Both the position numbers and the translations under genes were made by a program. Below the pieces are notes generated by a model that had not been told where the DNA came from, did no database searches, and saw only the letters and a list, made by a program, of their open reading frames with translations. 64,000 nucleotides of DNA, from the NCBI RefSeq assembly GCF_044324875.1, contig NZ_CP172185.1; one strand, given 5' to 3'. Shown here in pieces: positions 1,320 through 62,357 of the stretch. Position 1 is the first letter of the stretch; each line of letters starts with the position of its first letter. The stretch comes from Escherichia coli. Its GTDB lineage: Bacteria > Pseudomonadota > Gammaproteobacteria > Enterobacterales > Enterobacteriaceae.

Positions 1320-4300
1320 TTATCCTTTAAAGCAACGGCGGATCACCACAAAGAACACTGGCACGAAGAAGATTGCCAGCAACGTTGCAGAAACCATCCC
1401 GCCCATTACCCCGATACCCACTGCGTTCTGCGCGCCACTGCCGGCACCGTTACTGATAGCTAGCGGTAATACGCCGAGAATAAAGGCGAGAGAGGTCATC
1501 AGGATAGGACGCAGACGCATACGTACTGCCATTAGTGTCGCTTCAACAACACCTTTACCCTCTTTCTCCATGAGATCTTTAGCGAACTCAACAATCAATA
1601 TAGCGTTTTTAGCCGACAAGCCAATTGTCGTTAGCAAGCCCACCATAAAGTAGACGTCATTTTTTTGATTAAAGAGTGTCGCCGCCAGTAGCACGCCGAC
1701 AATCCCTAACGGCACGACCAACATAACCGAGACAGGAATTGACCAGCTTTCATAGAGTGCAGCAAGGCACAGGAAAACAACCACAAAGGAAATTGCTACC
1801 AGAGCGGGAGCCTGGTTTCCCGATAAGCGTTCCTGATATGACATACCCGTCCAGTCATAACCAATGCCAGCTGGTAATTGTGATGCAAGGTTTTCCATCA
1901 ACGCCATGGCATCGCCGGAACTGGTTCCTGGCGCGGCTTCCCCCTGAATCTCCATTGACGGCAGACCGTTGTAGCGCTCCAGTCGCGGAGAGCCATACAC
2001 CCAATGTGCAGTGGTAAAGGCCGAGAATGGTACCATTTCGCCGTTGGCGCTGCGGACATAAAGTTTATGGACATCTTCTGGCAGCATACGGAATTTGGCA
2101 TCCGCCTGAACATACACCTTTTTCACGCGACCACGGTCAATGAAGTCGTTAACGTAAGTCCCACCCAACGCCGTTGAAATGGTCTGATTGATGTCAGAAA
2201 GTGAAACACCTAATGCCTGCGCCTTTTCCTGGTCAACTTCCAGTTTAAACTGCGCGGTGTCTTCCAGACCATTAGGACGCACGCTGACTAAGCTGGCAGG
2301 ATGTTGCGCCGCCATACAAAGCAACTGGTTACGGGCCTGGGTTAGGGCATCGTGACCCAGCCCAGCCTGATCAATTAACTCAAAGTCGAAACCCGTTGCC
2401 GTGCCCAGTTCAACAATGGCTGGCATATTGAATGGAATGACAAAACCGTCGCGGATCTTGCCCAATTCCATTTTGGCACGATGGATTACTGCTTCCGCAC
2501 TGTTTTCGTCACCACTACGCTCTTCCCACGGTTTCAGACTGACGAAGGCCATACCGGCGTTTTGTGCCTGGCCGCTGAAGCTAAAGCCGTTAACCGTAAA
2601 GACACTTTCAACGTTCGCTTTTTCGTTCTTCAGATAGTAATCCGTCACTTGATCCAACACTTTTTGCGTCCGCTCTTGCGTCGCGCCAGCGGGTAACTGA
2701 ATCATGGTCAGAAAGACACCCTGATCCTCTTCAGGTAAGAAGGAAGACGGAAGGCGTAAAAACAACACCACCATTCCTGCAACAATCAGCGCATAGATCA
2801 GTAAATATCGTCCTGTGGAACCGAGGATTTTGCCGACGCTGTTGGTGTAGTGGTTAACGCTATGATCGAAGGTGGTATTAAACCAGCCGAAGAAACCGCC
2901 CTTATTTTCGTGATGCTCAGCAGAGACGGGTTTGAGCAGTGTTGCACATAACGCTGGGGTAAGAATCAATGCCACCAGAACAGAAAGCGCCATTGCCGAA
3001 ACGATGGTGATAGAGAACTGGCGGTAAATTGCCCCAGTAGAACCGCCGAAGAATGCCATTGGAATAAATACCGCTGACAGCACCATCGCGATACCCACCA
3101 GTGCGCCCTGGATTTGCGACATTGATTTTTCCGTCGCTTCTTTTGGCGGGAGCTTATCCTCCATCATCACGCGCTCGACGTTCTCCACCACCACTATCGC
3201 ATCATCGACGAGCAGCCCGATGGCAAGCACCATCCCGAACATCGTTAGTGTATTGATGGAGTAACCAAAAGCGGCGAGGATGGCAAACGTCCCTAACAAC
3301 ACTACGGGTACCGCAATGGTGGGGATCAGCGTTGCTCGCATATTCTGCAAGAACAGATACATCACCAGGAACACCAGCATAATGGCTTCGAACAGCGTTT
3401 TTACCACTTCGTGAATAGAAAGCTGGACGAATGGCGTGGTGTCATAAGGGTAGAGAACCTTCATTCCCTGTGGGAAGAATGGCTGTAATTCCGCCAGTTT
3501 TGCCTTAATGGCTTTCGCGGTATCGAGAGCATTCGCGCCGGTTGCCAGCTTAATACCCAGGCCCGCCGCCGGTTTTCCGTTGATGCGAGCGATAACGTTA
3601 TAGTTTTCACCGCCAAGTTCAACCCGTGCGACATCTTTCAGGCGTACCACCGAGCCGTCACTGTTTACGCGCAGGGTCACTTTGCCGAATTCTTCCGGAT
3701 TTTTTAACCGCGTTTGAGCAATAATCGAGGCATTCAACTGTTGCCCTGGTAACGCTGGCGTTCCGCCCAACTGTCCGGCAGCGATCTGGTCGTTCTGTAC
3801 CCTTAACTGGTTAATCACATCAACCGGCGTCAATTTATATTTGTTTAGCAGATCGGCGTCCAACCAGATACGCATCGCATACTGTGCGCCGAAAAGTTGT
3901 ACGTCACCGACGCCATTCAGACGGCTAAGCGTATCTTTAACGTTAGAGGCCACATAGTCCGAGATATCGTCCTGTGTGGTGCCTGGGTTATCAGAGACAA
4001 AGCCCGCCACCATCAAATAGCTGCTACTGGACTTTTCAACACTGATCCCCTGCTGCTGTACCTCCTGCGGCAGCAACGGCGTGGCGAGCTGGAGTTTGTT
4101 CTGCACCTGCACTTGCGCGATATCTGGATCGGTCCCAGACTGGAAGGTAAGGGTAATTGTCACGCTACCGGCGGAATCGCTGGTGGAGGACATATACATC
4201 AGGTTATCGATACCGTTCATATTCTGTTCGATAACCTGCGTCACCGTATCCTGCACGGTCTGCGCATCAGCGCCCGGATAGTTTGCTGAAACAGAAACCG

Positions 4301-4435: not shown

Positions 4436-5593
4436 TTACTTCGATGCAGAATCTGCGGGGGTATCGGTAGTGGCTTTAACCTGCTCTCCCGGACGCGCTT
4501 TTTGCAGGCCGCTGACAATGACTTGATCGCCAGATTTCAGACCTTCGCTAATCAACCATTTATCGCCAATCGCCTGACTGGCAACGACAGGGCGCGCTTC
4601 CACCTGACTTTTATCGTTAACAATCAGCACGGTTGCATCACCACGCGGTGTGCGGCTAACGCCTTGTTGCGGGATAAGAATGGCGTCAGGTTGGACGCCT
4701 TCATCAATCCGTGCACGCACAAACATACCCGGCAAAAGCGTATGTTGCGGGTTAGGGAAGACAGCACGTAGGGTTATGGAGCCGGTGCTTTCATCAACGG
4801 TCACATCAGAGAATTGCAGCGTACCTTTCAGGGGATAGGTTTGACCGTTTTCCATGACCAACTCTACGTTGCTGGTGGCGTTTTCCTTATGCAAATTTCC
4901 TTGCTCTACGGATTGCTTCAGCCTCATAAAATCGTTGCTGGATTGGGTCACATCAACGTAGATAGGATCGAGCTGCTGGACAGTCGCCAGTTCAGTCGTT
5001 TGCCCATTAGTGACAAGAGCGCCTTCGGTCACGGTCGATTTGCCGATACGTCCGCTAATTGGCGCAGTCATTTTGGTATAAGCGAGATTGATGAGAGCGC
5101 TTTCGACCGTGGCTTTTGCGGCAATCACGGCGGCATCGGCCTGGCGAGCATCAGCAATGGCCTGGTCGTACTCCTGCTGACTGATGTATTTCGTACCCAC
5201 GAGCGGAACGTAACGTTTTACCGTCAAATGCGCGATGGCGGCGGCGGCTTCACTTTTCGCCAGTTCGCCTTTCGCGCTGTCATAACTTGCCTGATAGGTC
5301 GCGGGATCGATCTGGTACAGGGACTGGCCTGCTTGCACATCGCTGCCTTCAGTGAAATTGCGACTCAGTACGATCCCGCTAACCTGTGGGCGAACTTCGG
5401 CTATACGGTAAGCATTGGTGCGGCCTGGTAATTCAGTCTTAACTTCTAACGGGGCCGTTTTCACAATATGAACGGTAACCTGCGGTTCACCGACGTGAGC
5501 TTTCTCTTCTCCCTTATCGTTACAACCGGCGATTAAAGCCGCGGAGATCAGAATAAAGGAGGGCAGGAGGAAAAACCTGGCATGTTTCGTCAT
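4436..5593 (-). CDS. acrE: Periplasmic adaptor (membrane fusion) lipoprotein AcrE
   Basis: ORF track 4436..5593 (385 aa) [24 protein letters not shown]...; lipobox; 11 bp upstream of acrF. Confidence 0.95.
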
Positions 5594-5991
5594 TACTATT
5601 CCTCAAAAAACCAAAAGCGCGTTATTTACCCAAAAAGGCAACGCGTTAACTCGCAGAAAGAAAAATACAGTTCGCTATCCTACAAATTATCATTCGTCGA
5701 TGTAAGGAATAGTTATGAATACTGGCGTCTCAAGGCACATAAACACAAAAAAAGATTAATATTCTACTGTTTTATTTTGACGCGGGTTGAAAGAGGTAGA
5801 ATCAAATCCTCGTAAATTGAAATATATATTGATAGAGTGAATGTATTTTAGGTAAATAATAAACGTTATTTATTTGACGATTTATAGCAACTCAATATTA
5901 GCCTCTCGTATAAATATACATTAGGTGATAGATTAACCTTCGCTATTTTCTCATCCTGTGTCGAATATATTTATTTCCTGAATAATTAATC

Positions 5992-6654
5992 ATGGCAAAA
6001 AGAACCAAAGCTGAAGCCCTGAAGACCCGGCAAGAACTGATTGAAACTGCCATCGCCCAGTTTGCGCAGCGTGGCGTAAGCAAGACGACGCTCAACGACA
6101 TTGCCGACGCCGCTAACGTTACGCGTGGCGCTATCTACTGGCACTTCGAGAACAAGACCCAACTGTTTAATGAGATGTGGTTGCAACAGCCTTCATTGCG
6201 GGAGTTAATCCAGGAACACTTGACGGCTGGATTAGAGCATGACCCGTTTCAGCAATTGCGTGAAAAATTGATTGTCGGCTTGCAATATATTGCCAAAATT
6301 CCCCGCCAGCAGGCGTTGCTGAAAATCTTATATCATAAATGTGAATTTAATGATGAGATGCTGGCCGAGGGGGTAATACGCGAAAAGATGGGCTTTAATC
6401 CGCAGACTCTACGCGAAGTATTGCAGGCATGTCAGCAACAAGGTTGTGTAGCAAATAATCTCGATTTAGATGTTGTGATGATTATTATTGATGGTGCCTT
6501 CAGCGGAATTGTTCAAAACTGGTTAATGAATATGGCGGGTTATGATCTTTATAAACAAGCACCCGCACTGGTCGATAACGTATTAAGAATGTTCATGCCA
6601 GATGAAAACATAACGAAATTAATTCATCAAACGAATGAATTAAGTGTCATATAA
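5992..6654 (+). CDS. acrS: TetR-family repressor of acrEF/acrAB (AcrS/EnvR)
   Basis: ORF track 5992..6654 (220 aa) MAKRTKAEALKTRQELIETAIAQFAQRGVSKTTLNDIADAANVTRGAIYWHF (TetR HTH); divergent from acrE; ATG confirmed at 5992. Confidence 0.93.
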   Translation: MAKRTKAEALKTRQELIETAIAQFAQRGVSKTTLNDIADAANVTRGAIYWHFENKTQLFNEMWLQQPSLRELIQEHLTAGLEHDPFQQLREKLIVGLQYIAKIPRQQALLKILYHKCEFNDEMLAEGVIREKMGFNPQTLREVLQACQQQGCVANNLDLDVVMIIIDGAFSGIVQNWLMNMAGYDLYKQAPALVDNVLRMFMPDENITKLIHQTNELSVI

Positions 6655-6656
6655 AT

Positions 6657-6836
6657 TCACATTCTGTCCTGAAAATTCAGTTCGTCACAGTTAACCAGTT
6701 TTAGTGGATTAACTGAGTTCATATTGCGGCATTTGTCTGTTTCTGTTGCCAGCAGTTCAATCCACTGCATCAGTAAAGTATCAAACAGAAAAACGAAGAC
6801 AGCGAAAACGACGAGCCACCAATACTTGCGAATCAT
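6657..6836 (-). CDS. yhdU: Small membrane protein YhdU
   Basis: ORF track 6657..6863; internal Met start chosen (MIRKYWWLVVFAVFVFLFDTLLMQ..., 59 aa, hydrophobic helix); position between acrS and yhdJ as in K-12. Confidence 0.65.
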   Translation of the reverse strand: MIRKYWWLVVFAVFVFLFDTLLMQWIELLATETDKCRNMNSVNPLKLVNCDELNFQDRM

Positions 6837-6919: not shown

Positions 6920-7804
6920 TTACTTTGCAATGAGATCGGGGTCAACTTCGCTTAACCTGCTTCGTTTTGACAGGTTGCCGGTCTTTCTTTTTTTCACTTT
7001 CGCCAGTTCTTCCGCAGAGTAATGCGACGCGACATCCAGCCGTCGAAGCCCCATTTTGATGTACTCGCTGTTAATCTCAATACCAATGAATTTTCGCCCG
7101 CTGGCGACGGCTACGGCACCGGTAGTAAAGCTACCAGAAAACGGGTCGAGAACGATATCGCCTGGGTTGGAAGAGGCGAGAATAATGCGTTTCAGTAAGG
7201 CTTCCGGTTTTTGCGTCGGGTGATTCTCATATTCATCCATCAAATAACGCACGCGCGGAAAATCCCAGACGTTACCCGGTACTTTTTGATGATTGTAAGG
7301 CTGTGGAGGATTTTTGCGATAATCGATCAACGCGCGCTGCGATCCGGTTTTGGCTTCTACCAGAATAGCATCACCGTTGAACGTGTAGTTCTTTGCGTCT
7401 TTCACCATCATCAGGATGGGTTCGTACATGGAGCCGTAGTGTTTTTTCGCCTGCACTCCAGAACTGTCATATGACCAGACGATGCGACTTTTGATGGTAA
7501 AAAGCTTGCGGCACTGGAGATCGATAAAGGGCATGTTTTCCGTGCTGTTCATGATGTACATGCTGCCCTGCTTTTTCAGAACGCGGTGGCACTCTTCAAT
7601 CACTTCAAACAGCCAGTCGATAAACAGATCTTCTTTCCAGGCTTCGATCAGACCATCAAAATTTTTACCGATGTTATACGGTGGGTCGGCAAAGATCAGA
7701 TCGACACTTTCGGCGGGGATCTTTTTAAGTTCGGTTAATGCATCACCCTGGATGATGGTCTTTGCTTCATTACCAAATCGGGTCGGTTCACATCCTGTTC
7801 TCAT
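6920..7804 (-). CDS. yhdJ: DNA adenine (N6) methyltransferase YhdJ
   Basis: ORF track 6920..7810 (296 aa); contains DPPY motif (FADPPYNIG) and C-terminal FAGSFTTG-like SAM motif; start set at third codon (MRTGCEP...) to give 294 aa; alternative start 7810. Confidence 0.9.
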   Translation of the reverse strand: MRTGCEPTRFGNEAKTIIQGDALTELKKIPAESVDLIFADPPYNIGKNFDGLIEAWKEDLFIDWLFEVIEECHRVLKKQGSMYIMNSTENMPFIDLQCRKLFTIKSRIVWSYDSSGVQAKKHYGSMYEPILMMVKDAKNYTFNGDAILVEAKTGSQRALIDYRKNPPQPYNHQKVPGNVWDFPRVRYLMDEYENHPTQKPEALLKRIILASSNPGDIVLDPFSGSFTTGAVAVASGRKFIGIEINSEYIKMGLRRLDVASHYSAEELAKVKKRKTGNLSKRSRLSEVDPDLIAK

Positions 7805-7828
7805 GGTCACTCCCTTTGTGACACCTAT

Positions 7829-7865
7829 AAAAAAGGCGCTTCCCCATGCCGAGTAGCGCCTTTTT
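7829..7865 (-). terminator. Intrinsic terminator after fis
   Basis: Hairpin ggcgct-(14 nt)-agcgcc at 7835-7860 flanked by A-run (7829-7834) and T-run (7861-7865); bidirectional in form. Confidence 0.7.
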
Positions 7866-7889
7866 AATCAAGCATTTAGCTAACCTGAA

Positions 7890-8186
7890 TTAGTTCATGC
7901 CGTATTTTTTCAATTTTTTACGCAGCGTACCACGGTTGATGCCCATCATCAGCGCAGCACGGGTCTGGTTACCACGGGTGTATTGCATCACCATGTCCAA
8001 CAGGGGCTGTTCTACTTCAGCCAGTACCAGCTCATAGAGGTCATTCACATCCTGACCGTTCAGTTGAGCAAAATAGTTCTTCAGTGCCTGTTTAACCGAG
8101 TCACGCAGGGGTTTTTGGGTTACCTGATCCTGAGAGTTAACGGTAGAAACGGTCAGTACGTCAGAATTTACGCGTTGTTCGAACAT
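7890..8186 (-). CDS. fis: Nucleoid-associated protein Fis
   Basis: ORF track 7890..8186 (98 aa) [98 protein letters not shown], matching Fis as I recall it. Confidence 0.98.
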
Positions 8187-8211
8187 AGTTCTGTCAGCTC
8201 TTTATTTCTGT

Positions 8212-9177
8212 TTACGCAAAATTTTCGAAGTATGCCTCCAACGCCTCCAGCTGTTCGCTGGCATCCTCAATGGCGTTGAATGTGCGCCGAAACTGGTCAT
8301 TTGGAGCGTGTTCCTGGAGATACCAGGAAACGTGTTTACGTGCAATTCGGTACCCTTTTGCCGGACCATAAAAGTCATGCAGTTCCCGAACGTGCGCGCA
8401 AAGCAAGCGCTTAACCTCTGCCAAAGGCAGCGGGGGCAGCAACTCCCCAGTGTCCAGATAATGCTGGATTTCCCGAAAGATCCAGGGTCTTCCCTGAGCT
8501 GCGCGGCCTATCATCAGGGCATCCGCCCCTGTATAGTCGAGCACAGCTCTGGCTTTAAGCGGGTCAGTAATGTCGCCATTCGCGATAACCGGAATGGAAA
8601 CTTTCTGCTTAACTGCCCGAATACTGTCGTACTCAGCTTCTCCATTGAACAAACAGGCGCGTGTACGGCCATGAATGGTCAGAGCCTGAATGCCACAGTC
8701 TTCAGCCAGTTGGGCAATCTCTTCGCAGTTACGGTGTTCCGGTGCCCAGCCGGTGCGAATCTTCAGGGTAACAGGAACGTCCACTGCATTGACGACCTCG
8801 GTAAGGATCGATTTAACGACATCCGGGTACTGCAAGAGGGCTGAACCTGCGAGCTTGCGATTCACTTTTTTAGCCGGGCAACCCATATTGATATCAATAA
8901 TCTGGGCACCGCTTTCCACGTTAATACGTGCTGCATCTGCCATTTCTTTCGGATCGCTACCAGCAATTTGCACGGTGCGAATACCGGGTTCATCAATGTG
9001 CACCATCCGTAAACGAGATTTGTCGCTTTCCCAAACCTGTGGGTTAGAAGACATCATCTCGGATACTGTCAATCCGGCTCCCATCTCGTAGCACAACGTC
9101 CGAAAAGGTCTGTCTGTAATGCCAGCCATGGGCGCTGCGATCAGGCGATTTCTGAGCTGATATTGTCCGATGCGCAT
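8212..9177 (-). CDS. dusB: tRNA-dihydrouridine synthase B
   Basis: ORF track 8212..9177 (321 aa) [26 protein letters not shown]...; co-operonic upstream of fis. Confidence 0.95.
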
Positions 9178-26999: not shown

Positions 27000-27072
27000 T
27001 TTGACGAGGGCGCGTAATTGCCCCAATCTCATATGATAATCGTTGCCAAAGGCCAACGAGCCAGAACATAAC

Positions 27073-27107
27073 CGTAGGCCGGACAGGGCGTTCACGCCGC
27101 ATCCGGC
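27073..27107. repeat. REP (repetitive extragenic palindromic) element
   Basis: cgtaggccggacagggcgttcacgccgcatccggc is the reverse complement of the canonical GCCGGATGCGGCGTGAACGCC...CCGGCCTACG REP motif; lies between yhdP and tldD. Confidence 0.85.
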
Positions 27108-27139
27108 AGCCGTAAAAAATCCTCTACTGCAGTAACTAA

Positions 27140-41421: not shown

Positions 41422-41515
41422 TGGCCTAAGTCCGAATCCAGCCTCTTTTCCTTCTCACTACAGCATTATTCTCTGTAAACGGTATTTTCCTCGCACTATA
41501 GAAAAGGATATCGCG

Positions 41516-42310
41516 ATGGGATTTTTTAATACATTGTTTAATAAGAAAGAATCATTAACGCTGTCGAATAAATGGGAATTCTTTATTACCACGGTGGAAG
41601 ATAATGTAACGGGCATACGTGTAGATATTGGCGCAATTGAGGACGAAAAATTTGATCGTCTTATCCACACATGGTTTTTACGTGTCCGTTATACTGACTG
41701 TTATGAAAACGGTTTTCCGCAACCTGATGAAACACAGCGTTTAAATCGTATTGAGGACTGGCTTGAGGCGCAGGGTAAAACACTACCGATCTGGCTAGTG
41801 GGTGTGGTTACGCAACAAGGTTCACGCGATTTTGTTTTCCAGTCAGAAAAAGACCTGGACTGGGAAAAGACATTGGATAAATTGTTGGCAGGTGGCCCGG
41901 AGCTCGCTTGCAGCTTTAATGAGAGTAAAAACGACCACGGAAATTACTACCGCCAGTTTTTGTATCCAACCAAATACGACTGGAACTGGATACACGATTC
42001 CCGAGTATGCCGCGGGTTACTGGAGCATGGTGACGATTTGACTCTCCCACGCACCATCGATTATTACGCGACATTGCCGACAGAAACTGCGGCCCACGCC
42101 TTTGTGGAGGACGTGACGAAATTGCCATATGGCATCACGCTGGTGAGCATTCGGATGAACGACCAACAACCGGAGTATATGGCGTCATTGATTAACACTG
42201 ATGCTCCGGAACAATGGCATATGACCGATATCACATGCCAGCTTACCGATTTGGCGGAAAAGCATGGAGGTAGTTTTGATGGCTGGGGCGCACCGATAGC
42301 AACGGCATAA
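41516..42310 (+). CDS. Hypothetical protein, 264 aa; putative DUF695 (N-terminal) + RraB-like (C-terminal) domains; not present at this locus in K-12 as I recall it
   Basis: Long ORF 41285..42310 in track; the upstream part overlaps rpsI and its terminator, so start set at first ATG after the terminator (41516), which has an AAGGA RBS 7 bp upstream. Translation MGFFNTLFNKKESLTLSNKWEFFITTVEDNVTGIRVDIGAIED...LTDLAEKHGGSFDGWGAPIATA. Domain call is from motif resemblance by memory, not from a search. Confidence 0.8.
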   Translation: MGFFNTLFNKKESLTLSNKWEFFITTVEDNVTGIRVDIGAIEDEKFDRLIHTWFLRVRYTDCYENGFPQPDETQRLNRIEDWLEAQGKTLPIWLVGVVTQQGSRDFVFQSEKDLDWEKTLDKLLAGGPELACSFNESKNDHGNYYRQFLYPTKYDWNWIHDSRVCRGLLEHGDDLTLPRTIDYYATLPTETAAHAFVEDVTKLPYGITLVSIRMNDQQPEYMASLINTDAPEQWHMTDITCQLTDLAEKHGGSFDGWGAPIATA

Positions 42311-42578
42311 AGGTTTAAAACAACATTCCCGGTGGGGACTAAGTCAAGCATTTCAGACTAAAGCGCATCTCTTTTTCCCCATTTCCGGCATCGACTCACC
42401 ACAAAGGTCGCAAAATCTGGTAAACTATCATCCAATTTTCTGCCCAAATGTCGGGTATTGCTCATTTTTTGTTTAATTTTCGAACAAAGAGAGTCGTTCC
42501 TTACTGGGTAACACAACTTCTGACTGGCCACCTGGTGGCTGGTAGCAGTAAAAATTCTGACTATACCTGGAGGTTTTC

Positions 42579-43763: not shown

Positions 43764-45131
43764 TTAATAAAATAGCGTGATAGTGGCAATCATATTCACC
43801 ACGAAACCGACTGCCATGGGGATCGCTGTCCGCTTCACTACCGCAAAAGGCGAAACGCCTGCAATTCCTGACGTAACGACCACCACCGCAGTAATCGGCG
43901 AAACAGCGCGCGCTAGCGTCGTGGCAAAATGCATCGGCATAATCATTACAACCGCTGGTACATGTAGTCCGGCTGCGATATTCGGAATAAGACTGGCAAA
44001 TGACATAAACGGCGCATTGCCTGAGCCCATCACAATGGCACAAATGGCAATGACCAGCGCCATAATAATCATCACGCCAATACCGCCCAGGCCAGAATGC
44101 TCCGCACCCCTGATAACCGCATCGACAGTGCCAATCGTCGTTAAGCCTTTCGCAAATATTTCACCCGCGACCACCAGCGTTACCACGTTGGCAAACTGCG
44201 TACCCATGCCGTCAAAAAACGCCTGCACATCGTCCATTGTTTCGCGCAAGTTATGCTTGCGGAAGAACTCAACAAACATCGTCACCGTCAAACTCAGTAA
44301 CATCACCACCACCAGATGCAGTTCTGACTGCATCAGCCCGACGTGGGCAAGGAACAGCGAGCCGAGCATCAGGATTAACGGCATCACAGGTAAAATGGCG
44401 TAATAGAGCGGCGGGACATTATCGAGAGCTTTTTGCTCTGCCTGTTCGTGATTGATATTTTTATCTTTTTTGTCGAAAGCGCGTTGCACGAAAAAGTGGG
44501 AGATCGCCACCGAGATAATGACGCAAGAGGCGACCGGAAGCTGGTAGTGGAAGAAGTAAGTGGCAATTTTCATTCCTGCTACCTGGGCAGCAAAAATGGA
44601 GTTCGTTTCCAGAATCCCCCACTCAATGGACATGGTGGTTGCGATAACCGCCACCGCAGAGAGACGACTTACTCCCAGACTCACCAGCGTCGGAAATAAG
44701 GTGACCATCAGCAACATACCCAGACCGGAGGCGCTGGTAATAAACTGCGCCATGATTTGGCCGATGACGTAAGTTGCCGACAGAATAATATACGGCGAGC
44801 GAATAAGTTTTAACGGGCGGCTTAACAAGCTCACCATCGCACGACTGGCCCCTATGCGCTCCATATAGCGGGCATAACCGCCCACTGCCATAATCGACAG
44901 CCCCAATCCGGCAATGCGGTTGGACAGCATGCGCAGGATTTCATTATAAATATCGACGATCAAGTAGCCGCTGCTTTTGGCGGGATCGAGCACACCACCG
45001 AACCCTAACCAGACACCGCACATCATCAGGAAGATACCTGCGGCAGCCAGCACCACCTGAGGTTTGTAGTTTTTCAGGATCAAATAGCCCATCGTAATTA
45101 ATACGATGACAGATATAATTATGCCGAACAT
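43764..45131 (-). CDS. dcuD: Putative C4-dicarboxylate transporter DcuD (DcuC family)
   Basis: ORF track 43764..45149; start set at [27 protein letters not shown] (455 aa); polytopic membrane protein; divergent from nanR. Confidence 0.9.
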
Positions 45132-45510
45132 TGTTGAACTCCGTGTCAAAAGAAAACGGTCAATCCCATAAACGGCAGATTGAAAACAATGATGTTATAT
45201 TTTTTGCAAGGCTATTTATGGTGCGGATGTCGTGTTTTTAATTGTAGATGAGGTGATTTTTCATTAAAAAATATGCGCTTATGATTATTTTGTAAGAACA
45301 CATTCATAATATTCATAATACTTGTTAATAGTCTTATGAATAATTCAATCGGGATGTTTTTATCTGCGTTACATTAATTTTTCGCAATAGTTAATTATTC
45401 AGTTAATTATAGTAATGATGAGGCACAAAGAGAAAACCCCGCCATTTCCCCCTACTTTCAATCCTGTGATAGGATGTCACTGATGATGTTAATCACACTG
45501 ACCTTACAGA

Positions 45511-46302
45511 ATGGGCCTTATGAACGCATTTGATTCGCAAACCGAAGATTCTTCACCTGCAATTGGCCGCAACTTACGCAGCCGCCCGCTGGCGCGTAAA
45601 AAACTCTCCGAAATGGTGGAAGAAGAGCTGGAACAGATGATCCGCCGTCGTGAATTTGGCGAAGGTGAACAATTACCGTCTGAACGCGAGCTGATGGCGT
45701 TCTTTAACGTCGGGCGTCCTTCGGTGCGTGAAGCGCTGGCAGCGTTAAAACGCAAAGGTCTGGTGCAAATAAACAACGGCGAACGCGCTCGCGTCTCGCG
45801 TCCTTCTGCGGACACCATCATCGGCGAGCTTTCCGGTATGGCGAAAGATTTCCTTTCTCATCCTGGCGGGATTGCCCATTTCGAACAATTACGTCTGTTC
45901 TTTGAATCCAGCCTAGTGCGCTATGCGGCTGAACACGCCACCGATGAGCAAATCGATTTGCTGGCAAAAGCACTGGAAATCAACAGTCAGTCGCTGGATA
46001 ACAACGCGGCATTCATTCGTTCAGACGTTGATTTCCACCGCGTGCTGGCGGAGATCCCCGGTAACCCAATCTTCATGGCGATCCACGTTGCCCTGCTCGA
46101 CTGGCTGATCGCCGCACGTCCAACCGTGGCTGATCAGGCTCTGCACGAGCATAACAACGTTAGCTATCAACAGCATATTGCGATCGTTGATGCGATCCGC
46201 CGCCACGATCCCGATGAAGCCGATCGTGCGTTGCAATCGCATCTCAACAGCGTCTCTGCTACCTGGCACGCCTTCGGTCAGACCACCAACAAAAAGAAAT
46301 AA
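45511..46302 (+). CDS. nanR: GntR/FadR-family repressor of sialic acid catabolism NanR
   Basis: ORF track 45511..46302 (263 aa) [76 protein letters not shown]... Confidence 0.96.
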
Positions 46303-46365
46303 TGCCACTTTAGTGAAGCAGATCGCATTATAAGCTTTCTGTATGGGGTGTTGCTTAATTGATCT

Positions 46366-46388
46366 GGTATAACAGGTATAAAGGTATA
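46366..46388 (+). promoter_or_regulatory. NanR operator: three direct GGTATA repeats in nanA promoter
   Basis: ggtataacaggtataaaggtata (GGTATA at 46366-71, 46375-80, 46383-88), about 36 bp upstream of nanA ATG; matches the known NanR-binding repeat. Confidence 0.85.
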
Positions 46389-46423
46389 TCGTTTATCAGA
46401 CAAGCATCACTTCAGAGGTATTT

Positions 46424-47317
46424 ATGGCAACGAATTTACGTGGCGTAATGGCCGCACTCCTGACTCCTTTTGATCAACAACAAGCACTGGATAAAGCGAG
46501 TCTGCGTCGCCTGGTTCAGTTCAATATTAAGCAGGGCATCGACGGTTTATACGTGGGTGGTTCTACCGGCGAAGCCTTTGTACAAAGCCTTTCCGAGCGT
46601 GAACAGGTACTGGAAATCGTCGCCGAAGAGGCGAAAGGCAAGATTAAACTCATCGCCCACGTCGGTTGCGTCAGCACTGCTGAAAGCCAACAACTTGCGG
46701 CATCGGCTAAACGTTATGGCTTCGATGCCGTCTCCGCCGTCACGCCGTTCTACTATCCTTTCAGCTTTGAAGAACACTGCGATCACTATCGGGCAATTAT
46801 TGATTCGGCGGATGGTTTGCCGATGGTGGTGTACAACATTCCTGCCCTGAGCGGGGTAAAACTAACCCTGGATCAGATCAACACCCTGGTTACGCTGCCT
46901 GGTGTCGGCGTGCTGAAACAAACCTCTGGCGATCTCTATCAGATGGAGCAGATCCGTCGTGAACATCCGGATCTGGTGCTCTATAACGGTTACGACGAAA
47001 TTTTCGCCTCTGGTCTTCTGGCGGGCGCTGATGGTGGTATCGGTAGTACCTACAACATCATGGGCTGGCGTTATCAGGGTATTGTGAAGGCTCTGAAAGA
47101 AGGCGATATCCAGACCGCGCAGAAGCTGCAAACCGAATGTAATAAAGTCATTGATTTACTGATCAAAACGGGCGTATTCCGCGGCCTGAAAACGGTCCTG
47201 CATTATATGGATGTGGTGTCTGTGCCGCTGTGCCGCAAACCGTTTGGTCCGGTAGATGAAAAATATCTGCCAGAACTGAAGGCGCTGGCCCAGCAGTTGA
47301 TGCAAGAGCGCGGGTGA
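46424..47317 (+). CDS. nanA: N-acetylneuraminate lyase
   Basis: ORF track 46424..47317 (297 aa) [52 protein letters not shown]... Confidence 0.97.
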
Positions 47318-47425: not shown

Positions 47426-48916
47426 ATGAGTACTACAACCCAGAATATCCCGTGGTATCGCCATCTCAACCGCGCACAATGGCGGGCATTTTCCGCTGCC
47501 TGGTTGGGATATCTGCTTGACGGTTTTGATTTCGTTTTAATCGCCCTGGTACTCACCGAAGTACAAGGTGAATTCGGGCTGACGACGGTACAGGCAGCAA
47601 GCCTGATCTCCGCAGCCTTTATCTCTCGCTGGTTCGGTGGCCTGATGCTCGGCGCTATGGGTGACCGCTACGGGCGTCGGCTGGCAATGGTCACCAGTAT
47701 CGTTCTCTTCTCGGTCGGGACGCTGGCCTGCGGTTTTGCGCCAGGCTACATCACCATGTTTATCGCGCGTCTGGTCATCGGCATGGAGATGGCGGGTGAA
47801 TACGGTTCCAGCGCTACCTATGTCATTGAAAGCTGGCCAAAACATCTGCGTAACAAAGCCAGTGGTTTTCTGATTTCAGGCTTCTCTGTGGGGGCCGTGG
47901 TTGCCGCTCAGGTCTATAGCCTGGTGGTTCCGGTCTGGGGCTGGCGTGCGCTGTTCTTTATCGGCATTTTGCCAATCATCTTTGCTCTCTGGCTGCGTAA
48001 AAACATCCCGGAAGCGGAAGACTGGAAAGAGAAACATGCAGGCAAAGCACCGGTACGCACAATGGTGGACATTCTCTACCGTGGTGAACATCGCATCGCC
48101 AATATCGTGATGACGCTGGCGGCAGCTACTGCGCTGTGGTTCTGCTTCGCCGGTAACCTGCAAAATGCCGCAATCGTCGCTGTACTCGGGCTGTTATGCG
48201 CCGCAATCTTTATCAGCTTTATGGTACAGAGTACGGGCAAACGCTGGCCAACGGGCGTAATGCTGATGGTGGTCGTGTTGTTTGCTTTCCTCTATTCATG
48301 GCCGATTCAGGCACTGCTGCCAACGTATCTTAAAACTGAACTTGCTTATAACCCGCATACTGTCGCCAATGTGCTGTTCTTTAGTGGCTTTGGTGCGGCG
48401 GTGGGGTGCTGCGTCGGTGGCTTCCTCGGTGACTGGCTGGGAACCCGCAAAGCGTACGTTTGCAGTCTGCTGGCCTCACAGCTGCTGATTATTCCGGTAT
48501 TTGCGATTGGTGGCGCAAACGTCTGGGTGCTCGGTCTGTTACTGTTCTTCCAGCAAATGCTTGGTCAGGGCATCTCCGGGATCTTACCGAAACTGATTGG
48601 CGGTTATTTTGATACCGACCAGCGTGCAGCGGGCCTGGGCTTTACCTACAACGTTGGCGCATTGGGCGGCGCACTGGCCCCAATCCTCGGCGCGTTGATC
48701 GCTCAACGTCTGGATCTGGGGACGGCACTGGGCTCGCTCTCGTTCAGTTTGACGTTTGTGGTGATCCTGCTGATTGGTCTGGATATGCCTTCTCGCGTTC
48801 AGCGTTGGCTGCGCCCGGAAGCGTTGCGTACTCATGACGCTATCGACGGCAAACCATTTAGCGGTGCCGTGCCGTTTGGCAGCGCCAAAAACGATTTAGT
48901 CAAAACCAAAAGTTAA
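47426..48916 (+). CDS. nanT: Sialic acid:H+ symporter NanT (MFS)
   Basis: ORF track 47396..48916; start set at [39 protein letters not shown] (496 aa). Confidence 0.95.
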
Positions 48917-48963
48917 TCCTGTTGCCCGGTCTCTGTACCGGGCCTTTCGCTAAGGGAAGATGT

Positions 48964-49649
48964 ATGTCGTTACTTGCACAACTGGATCAAAAAATCGCTG
49001 CTAACGGTGGCCTGATTGTCTCCTGCCAGCCGGTCCCTGACAGCCCGCTCGATAAACCCGAAATCGTCGCCGCCATGGCATTAGCTGCAGAGCAGGCGGG
49101 TGCGGTCGCCATTCGCATTGAAGGTGTGGCAAATCTGCAAGCCACGCGTGCGGTGGTGAGCGTGCCGATTATCGGGATTGTAAAACGCGATCTGGAGGAT
49201 TCTCCGGTACGCATCACGGCCTATATTGAAGATGTTGATGCGCTGGCGCAGGTGGGCGCGGACATTATCGCGATTGACGGCACCGACCGACCGCGTCCGG
49301 TGCCTGTTGAAACGCTACTGGCACGTATCCACCATCACGGTTTACTGGCGATGACCGACTGCTCAACGCCGGAAGACGGTCTGGCATGCCAAAAGCTGGG
49401 AGCCGAAATTATTGGCACCACGCTTTCTGGCTATACCACACCTGAAACGCCAGAAGAGCCGGATCTGGCGCTGGTGAAAACGTTGAGTGACGCCGGATGT
49501 CGGGTGATTGCCGAAGGGCGTTACAACTCGCCTGCTCAGGCGGCAGATGCGATGCGCCACGGCGCGTGGGCGGTGACGGTCGGTTCTGCTATCACACGTC
49601 TTGAACACATTTGCCAGTGGTACAACACAGCGATGAAAAAGACGGTGCT

Positions 49650-49653
<4 letters not shown>
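48964..49653 (+). CDS. nanE: N-acetylmannosamine-6-phosphate 2-epimerase
   Basis: ORF track 48922..49653; start set at ATG 48964 ([30 protein letters not shown]..., 229 aa). Confidence 0.95.
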
Positions 49654-50986
<1,333 letters not shown>

Positions 50987-52134: not shown

Positions 52135-52317
52135 TATCTGTCCCTTTATATGGCGCTGCGTTGAATAATGGAATCAGCTATACGCCGGGCATCTACCGGT
52201 AACAATCCAGATGTGCGTATTACATTGGTTTTCTTCAGATTATGCGAGGCGCTTTCCAGTACGAAAGGAGAATTTCAGCGCCGACTCTTTTCTGAGGAGG
52301 CGGCGCTGGGACAGAGT

Positions 52318-53748
<1,431 letters not shown>

Positions 53749-62245: not shown

Positions 62246-62357
62246 CCCCGGCTAGACCGGGGTGCGCGAATACTGCGCCAACACCAGGGAAATCTTGGCT
62301 GCGCCGTAAATTATTATGATGAGTTACAAGGGCACAGCACTGTTTTTCAGGCCGCAC
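62237..62357 (-). ncRNA. arcZ: ArcZ (SraH/RyhA) small regulatory RNA
   Basis: Reverse complement of 62237-62357 reads GTGCGGCCTGAAAAACAGTGCTGTGCCCTTGTAACTCATCATAATAATTTACGGCGCAGCCAAGATTTCCCTGGTGTTGGCGCAGTATTCGCGCACCCCGGTCTAGCCGGGGTCATTTTTT, which matches the ArcZ sequence as I recall it, including its terminator; 3' end overlaps the arcB stop codon. Confidence 0.88.

Follow-up and report, generated by a model that had tools for sequence, protein, structure and literature searches.

A triple GGTATA direct repeat between nanR and nanA of Escherichia coli as the NanR operator of the nanATEK-yhcH operon

The window, a 64,000-nucleotide stretch of Escherichia coli DNA, carries three directly repeated GGTATA hexamers between nanR and nanA, and with a probability of about 0.97 this array is the NanR operator of the nanATEK-yhcH (nanQ) sialic-acid catabolic operon, working by the mechanism proposed below. 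Judged by its bases, the array is this operator base for base and not a mere lookalike. It has the defining features of a NanR operator, namely, two to three GGTATA repeats 2 to 3 nt apart, a promoter position downstream of nanR, identity to the K-12 site, a cognate NanR, and conservation. The operator is already known, and no sequence evidence against this reading was found. Its sequence, position, identity to the reference, and conservation were established in this analysis; binding, stoichiometry, cooperativity, and induction have been published for K-12 NanR and DNA carrying (GGTATA)3 repeats (PMC8012715).

All three hexamers are on the plus strand in the order GGTATA-ACA-GGTATA-AA-GGTATA, with a first spacer of 3 bp (ACA) and a second of 2 bp (AA), and the plus strand around the array is ttgatctGGTATAacaGGTATAaaGGTATAtcg. 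The first-pass annotation had described three GGTATA hexamers spaced 3 and 2 bp apart at 46366-46388, and both the coordinates and the spacing match the DNA exactly. It had also placed the array upstream of nanA, which is borne out: the array is located inside the 121-bp gap between nanR and nanA, 63 bp past the nanR stop codon and 35 bp ahead of the nanA ATG. The regulated operon beyond nanA (nanT, nanE, nanK, and nanQ/yhcH) spans 47426..50986 on the plus strand. Gene names (Table 1) were derived from NCBIfam profiles, all of which scored above the curated cut-offs, and from the RefSeq annotation of identical DNA, and the start and stop codons of the nan genes were checked against the window sequence. 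No terminator was predicted between nanR and nanA.

Table 1. Coordinates of the operator, the predicted promoter elements, and the neighboring genes in the 64-kb window.
Feature	Position	Strand	Basis
dcuD-like	43764-45149	-	NCBIfam
nanR, FadR-subfamily GntR repressor, 263 aa, operator-binding protein	45511-46302	+	NF003011, 408.9 bits vs cut-off 260
CRP-like site AGTGAAGCAGATCGCA, centre 60.5-61.5 bp upstream of the predicted start	46312..46327	+	inferred
27-bp core TTGATCTGGTATAACAGGTATAAAGGT	46359..46385	+	five-promoter alignment
Predicted extended -10 TGgTATAAC of the nanA promoter	46365..46373	+	inferred: sequence, position, conservation
NanR operator, (GGTATA)3 direct-repeat array GGTATAACAGGTATAAAGGTATA	46366..46388	+	sequence, K-12 identity, conservation, PMC8012715, PMC3658417
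GGTATA repeat 1; TATA + spacer = predicted -10 TATAAC	46366..46371	+	sequence; promoter overlap predicted
GGTATA repeat 2, over the predicted transcription start	46375..46380	+	sequence; start position predicted
GGTATA repeat 3, least conserved copy across the sialoregulon (nanC: GGTGCA)	46383..46388	+	promoter comparison
nanA, N-acetylneuraminate lyase, first gene of the regulated operon	46424-47317	+	TIGR00683, 567.9 bits
nanT	47426-48916	+	NCBIfam
nanE	48964-49653	+	NCBIfam
nanK	49650-50525	+	NCBIfam
nanQ/yhcH	50522-50986	+	NCBIfam

The NanR encoded in the window matches the GntR and FCD families and the PDB entries 6ON4, 6WFQ, and 6WG7. It is identical to K-12 NanR at 262 of 263 residues; the sole change, T207A, is in the effector domain, and residues 1 to 206 are unchanged. 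The window as a whole is collinear, in reverse, with positions 3,419,455-3,348,934 of K-12 MG1655 at approximately 98% identity, and the K-12 gene order (nanR followed by nanA-T-E-K-Q) is also found here. The first-pass annotation had proposed comparison with the published operator as a check, and over 161 bp that include the nanR-nanA gap the window proved identical, at 161 of 161 positions, to K-12 MG1655, in which the operator was originally defined; the three repeats, the ACA and AA spacers, and the flanks are the same, and the two operators do not differ. Its suggestion that the repeats fit the known nanATEK-yhcH operator thus agrees with the gene identities, the K-12 identity, and the published binding to (GGTATA)3. 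An operator located elsewhere, which it had named as the finding that would speak against the assignment, is unsupported, as the region is that of the reference strain and a search of the 64-kb window for further GGTATA arrays, with mismatches allowed, returned none beyond the operator.

The site is retained throughout the species. A 231-bp region is present in 5409 of the 5426 complete E. coli genomes, and a 32-bp segment over the array is present in 5377 of them, in 5367 at an identity of at least 99%. The extra places per genome at which this 32-bp query was found most likely correspond, by their sequence, to the operator of nanXY, with which it has 28 nt in common. In two Enterobacter genomes (L013 and L107), the 23-bp array is unchanged, whereas the flanking non-coding DNA diverges; in both, nanR (approximately 83% protein identity) is followed by the array and then by nanA (89% identity). 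Five promoters were aligned, i.e., those of nanA in the window, nanXY and nanC in K-12, and nanA in the two Enterobacter genomes. The array is the sole long invariant block in this alignment, in which the mean column identity is 74%. The 27-bp core is identical in the window nanA promoter, the K-12 nanXY and nanC promoters, and one of the Enterobacter nanA promoters; the second Enterobacter promoter is one base off the core, to the left of the repeats (TTGCTCT). Both the counts for the 32-bp segment and the five-promoter alignment indicate that the array is more conserved than the flanking non-coding DNA.

The two further K-12 sites at which the core recurs, upstream of nanXY (yjhBC) and of nanC (nanCMS), are known NanR targets and complete the published sialoregulon. 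The nanXY operator has three perfect repeats in flanks unlike those of nanA, and the nanC operator has a degenerate third repeat, GGTGCA. Both are farther upstream of their first gene (approximately 0.43 kb) than the nanA operator of the window (35 bp), and both have a CRP-like GTGA...CA element at the same upstream distance as nanA. The E. coli nanA, nanXY, and nanC promoters can be aligned over approximately 75 bp that begin at the CRP-like site and include the operator (window 46303-46365; L002 8544-8624 / 44944-45024), which suggests that a whole promoter module, beyond the repeats alone, is common to the three.

The published properties of NanR fit a site of this design. The operator is described as three GGTATA repeats with 2 or 3 nt between neighbors (PMC3658417), and three NanR dimers bind (GGTATA)3 cooperatively, with N-acetylneuraminate (Neu5Ac) weakening the binding (Horne 2021; Vimr 2013). 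On operator DNA, NanR has a KD of approximately 20-39 nM and a Hill coefficient of approximately 2; one repeat is insufficient for binding and two suffice, lengthening the spacers by 6 nt attenuates binding, and the weaker DNA binding follows from the binding of Neu5Ac to NanR itself (PMC8012715). Cryo-EM structures with one and with three NanR dimers on DNA place the dimers approximately half a helical turn apart (PMC8012715). Genomic SELEX located NanR both ahead of nanATEK and within the spacer between nanC and fimB (PMC4797297), and the nan operon is under positive control by CRP and negative control by NanR (PMC12562284, PMC10334811).

The array overlaps the predicted core promoter. Repeat 1, together with the upstream TG and the following spacer, can be read as an extended -10 element, although the window has about as many such motifs as chance would give (3, compared with 2.7 expected). 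With the -10 at this position, transcription would start near 46380-46381, inside or just past repeat 2, which would in turn put the CRP-like site at -60.5/-61.5, close to the -61.5 of a class I CRP-dependent promoter. This site has two mismatches to the CRP consensus, and matches of this quality are likewise at chance frequency in the window; its GTGA...CA element, approximately 50 bp upstream of the array, keeps its spacing to the operator throughout the five-promoter alignment. The predicted -10 is conserved in position as well; only this positional conservation supports the two motifs, and the exact positions of the -10, the start, and the CRP site are inferred. A scan of 46200-46500 for consensus promoters and terminators gave no match, which is to be expected of an activator-dependent promoter. 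In the work of Kalivoda et al. 2003, NanR reportedly protects approximately 30 bp covering the promoter, and a footprint over the array has been reported for K-12.

Since each repeat contains TATA, the three hexamers could be regarded as overlapping -10-like elements (TATAAC, TATAAA, and TATATC) and nothing else, with no repressor site among them; the reading of repeat 1 as an extended -10 agrees with this, as does the perfect TATAAT formed by the third repeat in arrays from Lachnospiraceae. However, both spacers and the GG at the head of each repeat are unchanged in E. coli, in Enterobacter, and at the paralogous promoters, which a -10 alone does not require, and NanR binds directly to (GGTATA)2-3 oligonucleotides, a binding that is lost with one repeat and attenuated with longer spacers (PMC8012715). 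We therefore consider it very improbable that the hexamers are promoter elements only. The -10 probably lies inside the operator, with the roles of promoter and repressor site coexisting.

Use of the site by another regulator in place of NanR, or a function of the nanA leader as RNA, is highly improbable. With a start near 46380, repeats 2 and 3 might be part of the transcript, and other regulators, e.g., NagC, are active in the related nanC-fimB region. On the other hand, the RNA fold of 46360-46430 is no better than those of shuffled sequences (z = -1.3; 16 of 200 shuffles gave an equal or better fold), and an Rfam search gave no family match in the operator region; a role for RNA structure was rejected on these two results. 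Both Genomic SELEX (PMC4797297) and EMSA (PMC8012715) assign the site to NanR. For K-12, it has been published that deletion of nanR abolishes repression although the operator is intact.

The hexamer GGTATA by itself is unremarkable, as the two strands of the 64-kb window contain 21 copies, compared with 14 +/- 3.4 in shuffles. A tandem triple of any hexamer has an expectation of approximately 0.14-0.23 per window, and at least one was present in 37 of 200 Markov-1 simulations, so that the shape of the repeat alone is only mildly unusual and not compelling. For GGTATA specified in advance, the expectation for same-strand triples with gaps of 0-5 bp is approximately 6e-5 per window. The array is compelling for three reasons: its hexamer is the motif published for NanR, the window contains no other hexamer triple, and the array is conserved. 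A chance repeat without function, for which the any-hexamer expectation might be taken to speak, has a negligible probability in view of the low expectation for the pre-specified triple, the recurrence of the array at two other NanR-regulated promoters, the published NanR binding, and above all the conservation of the array in E. coli and, despite divergent flanks, in Enterobacter, which excludes such an origin.

As the NanR operator, the array would function as follows. Without sialic acid, NanR dimers of the GntR/FadR type, encoded immediately upstream, would load cooperatively on the three closely spaced GGTATA repeats, with a maximum of three dimers on each operator. Repeat 1 supplies the likely -10, and repeats 2 and 3 would cover the likely start and the early transcribed region; because of this overlap with the core promoter, the NanR assembly would block RNA polymerase, with the stack of dimers occluding it over -13 to +8 as counted from the predicted start. 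Upon entering the cell, Neu5Ac would bind NanR and lock it in a conformation of weak DNA affinity, and the release of NanR would allow the CRP-dependent promoter to fire.

FadR-type sites are single palindromes that are each bound by one dimer. FadR has the same fold as NanR and the same winged-helix mode of DNA reading, and the NanR-DNA structure has been superposed on that of FadR-DNA (1HW2) (Horne 2021, PMC8012715). NanR, in contrast, occupies three direct repeats that follow one another at less than half a helical turn, and does so as three dimers through a 32-residue N-terminal extension; this long extension of E. coli NanR is held responsible for the cooperative assembly (Horne 2021, PMC8012715). 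The RpiR-type NanR regulators of Streptococcus and Clostridium perfringens have the same name and control the same pathway, whereas their protein family is unrelated to that of the NanR in the window. The C. perfringens and Vibrio proteins of this name are RpiR-type regulators with different operators, and the Streptococcus pneumoniae NanR is also described as RpiR-type in the abstract of its report. These RpiR-type regulators are not relevant to the nanA operator site.

Genome contigs were also scanned with the pattern GGTATAN{2,3}GGTATAN{2,3}GGTATA. At least 120 loci matched, with 959 kb sampled; the matches are mostly unrelated 8- or 9-bp tandem repeats of Bacteroidota and other MAGs, and those listed leave out E. 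coli, Salmonella, and Citrobacter and do not represent the species distribution. Among the matches listed, the E. coli-type operator is found only in the two Enterobacter genomes described above. At 7 of the 120 loci listed, including these two, the triple GGTATA array is within 229 bp of an FCD-type GntR gene, and elsewhere in the 959 kb sampled there is only one further fragment of such a gene. The locus from a Sphingomonadales MAG (L066) has the array at 1040-1062 and a regulator at 1291-2001 that is 53% identical to NanR, and that from a Synergistales genome (L025) has the array at 8520-8541 and a regulator at 7737-8459 that is 33-35% identical to NanR; both regulators are without the long N-terminal extension of NanR. 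Three loci are from Hungatella/Enterocloster (Lachnospiraceae), with arrays at 6003-6024 (L050; regulator at 5247-5978), 6788-6809 (L058), and 3602-3623 (L009), and their regulators are approximately 20% identical to NanR. In these three, the block TTGACCGGTATACCGGTATACTGGTATAAT is invariant and the flanks are divergent; the block reads as a putative -35 element followed, after a spacer of 18 nt, by a -10 that the repeats form.

It is a tentative proposition, for which we would offer somewhat less than even odds, that GGTATA-triplet arrays in core promoters are a cis-element widely common to FCD-type GntR regulators, far outside Enterobacterales and not confined to sialic-acid genes. The matches hint, in a small and motif-selected sample, that more FCD-GntR regulators have repeat-array operators than the literature, centred on E. 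coli, implies. A separate array of approximately 10 tandem copies of TGGTATAAC, which matches the 9-mer made up of NanR repeat 1 and the spacer after it, was observed in an intergenic position in Pseudoalteromonas sp. TB64 (L003:9135-9221), in a stretch of approximately 1.4 kb that has no ORF of at least 80 aa; a search of this 12.9-kb locus for NanR or Nan homologues found none.

Apart from NanR T207A and the approximately 98% background identity, the window strain differs from K-12 at several positions away from the operator. An insertion of approximately 0.9 kb at 41442-42335, between rpsI and sspA, contains an ORF for a DUF695 protein (approximately 41516-42310, plus strand); this gene is rare, as only 48 of the 5426 complete E. 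coli genomes, e.g., IAI39 and CE10, have the insertion in full length. Approximately 7.1 kb of K-12 (gltF, yhcA, yhcD, yhcE::IS5, and yhcF) is absent between yhcG and gltD, where approximately 130 bp is found instead at 52189-52318. Approximately 210 bp of the K-12 tldD-yhdP interval is missing at window 27050-27113; our guess is that this gap is a REP-type intergenic difference. The ArcZ sRNA is located at 62250-62357 on the minus strand (Rfam RF00081, 120.8 bits), beside arcB as in K-12.

Within the window, the value of the assignment is a correct annotation and not new biology. If the proposed wider occurrence of GGTATA-triplet arrays is true, binding of multiple dimers to direct repeats, a mode now deemed peculiar to E. 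coli NanR, may extend to distant FCD-GntR regulators of other phyla, although this is preliminary. The nanA NanR operator underlies NanR biosensors, and it is the control point for the use of host sialic acid by E. coli, a trait that is tied to colonisation of the gut.
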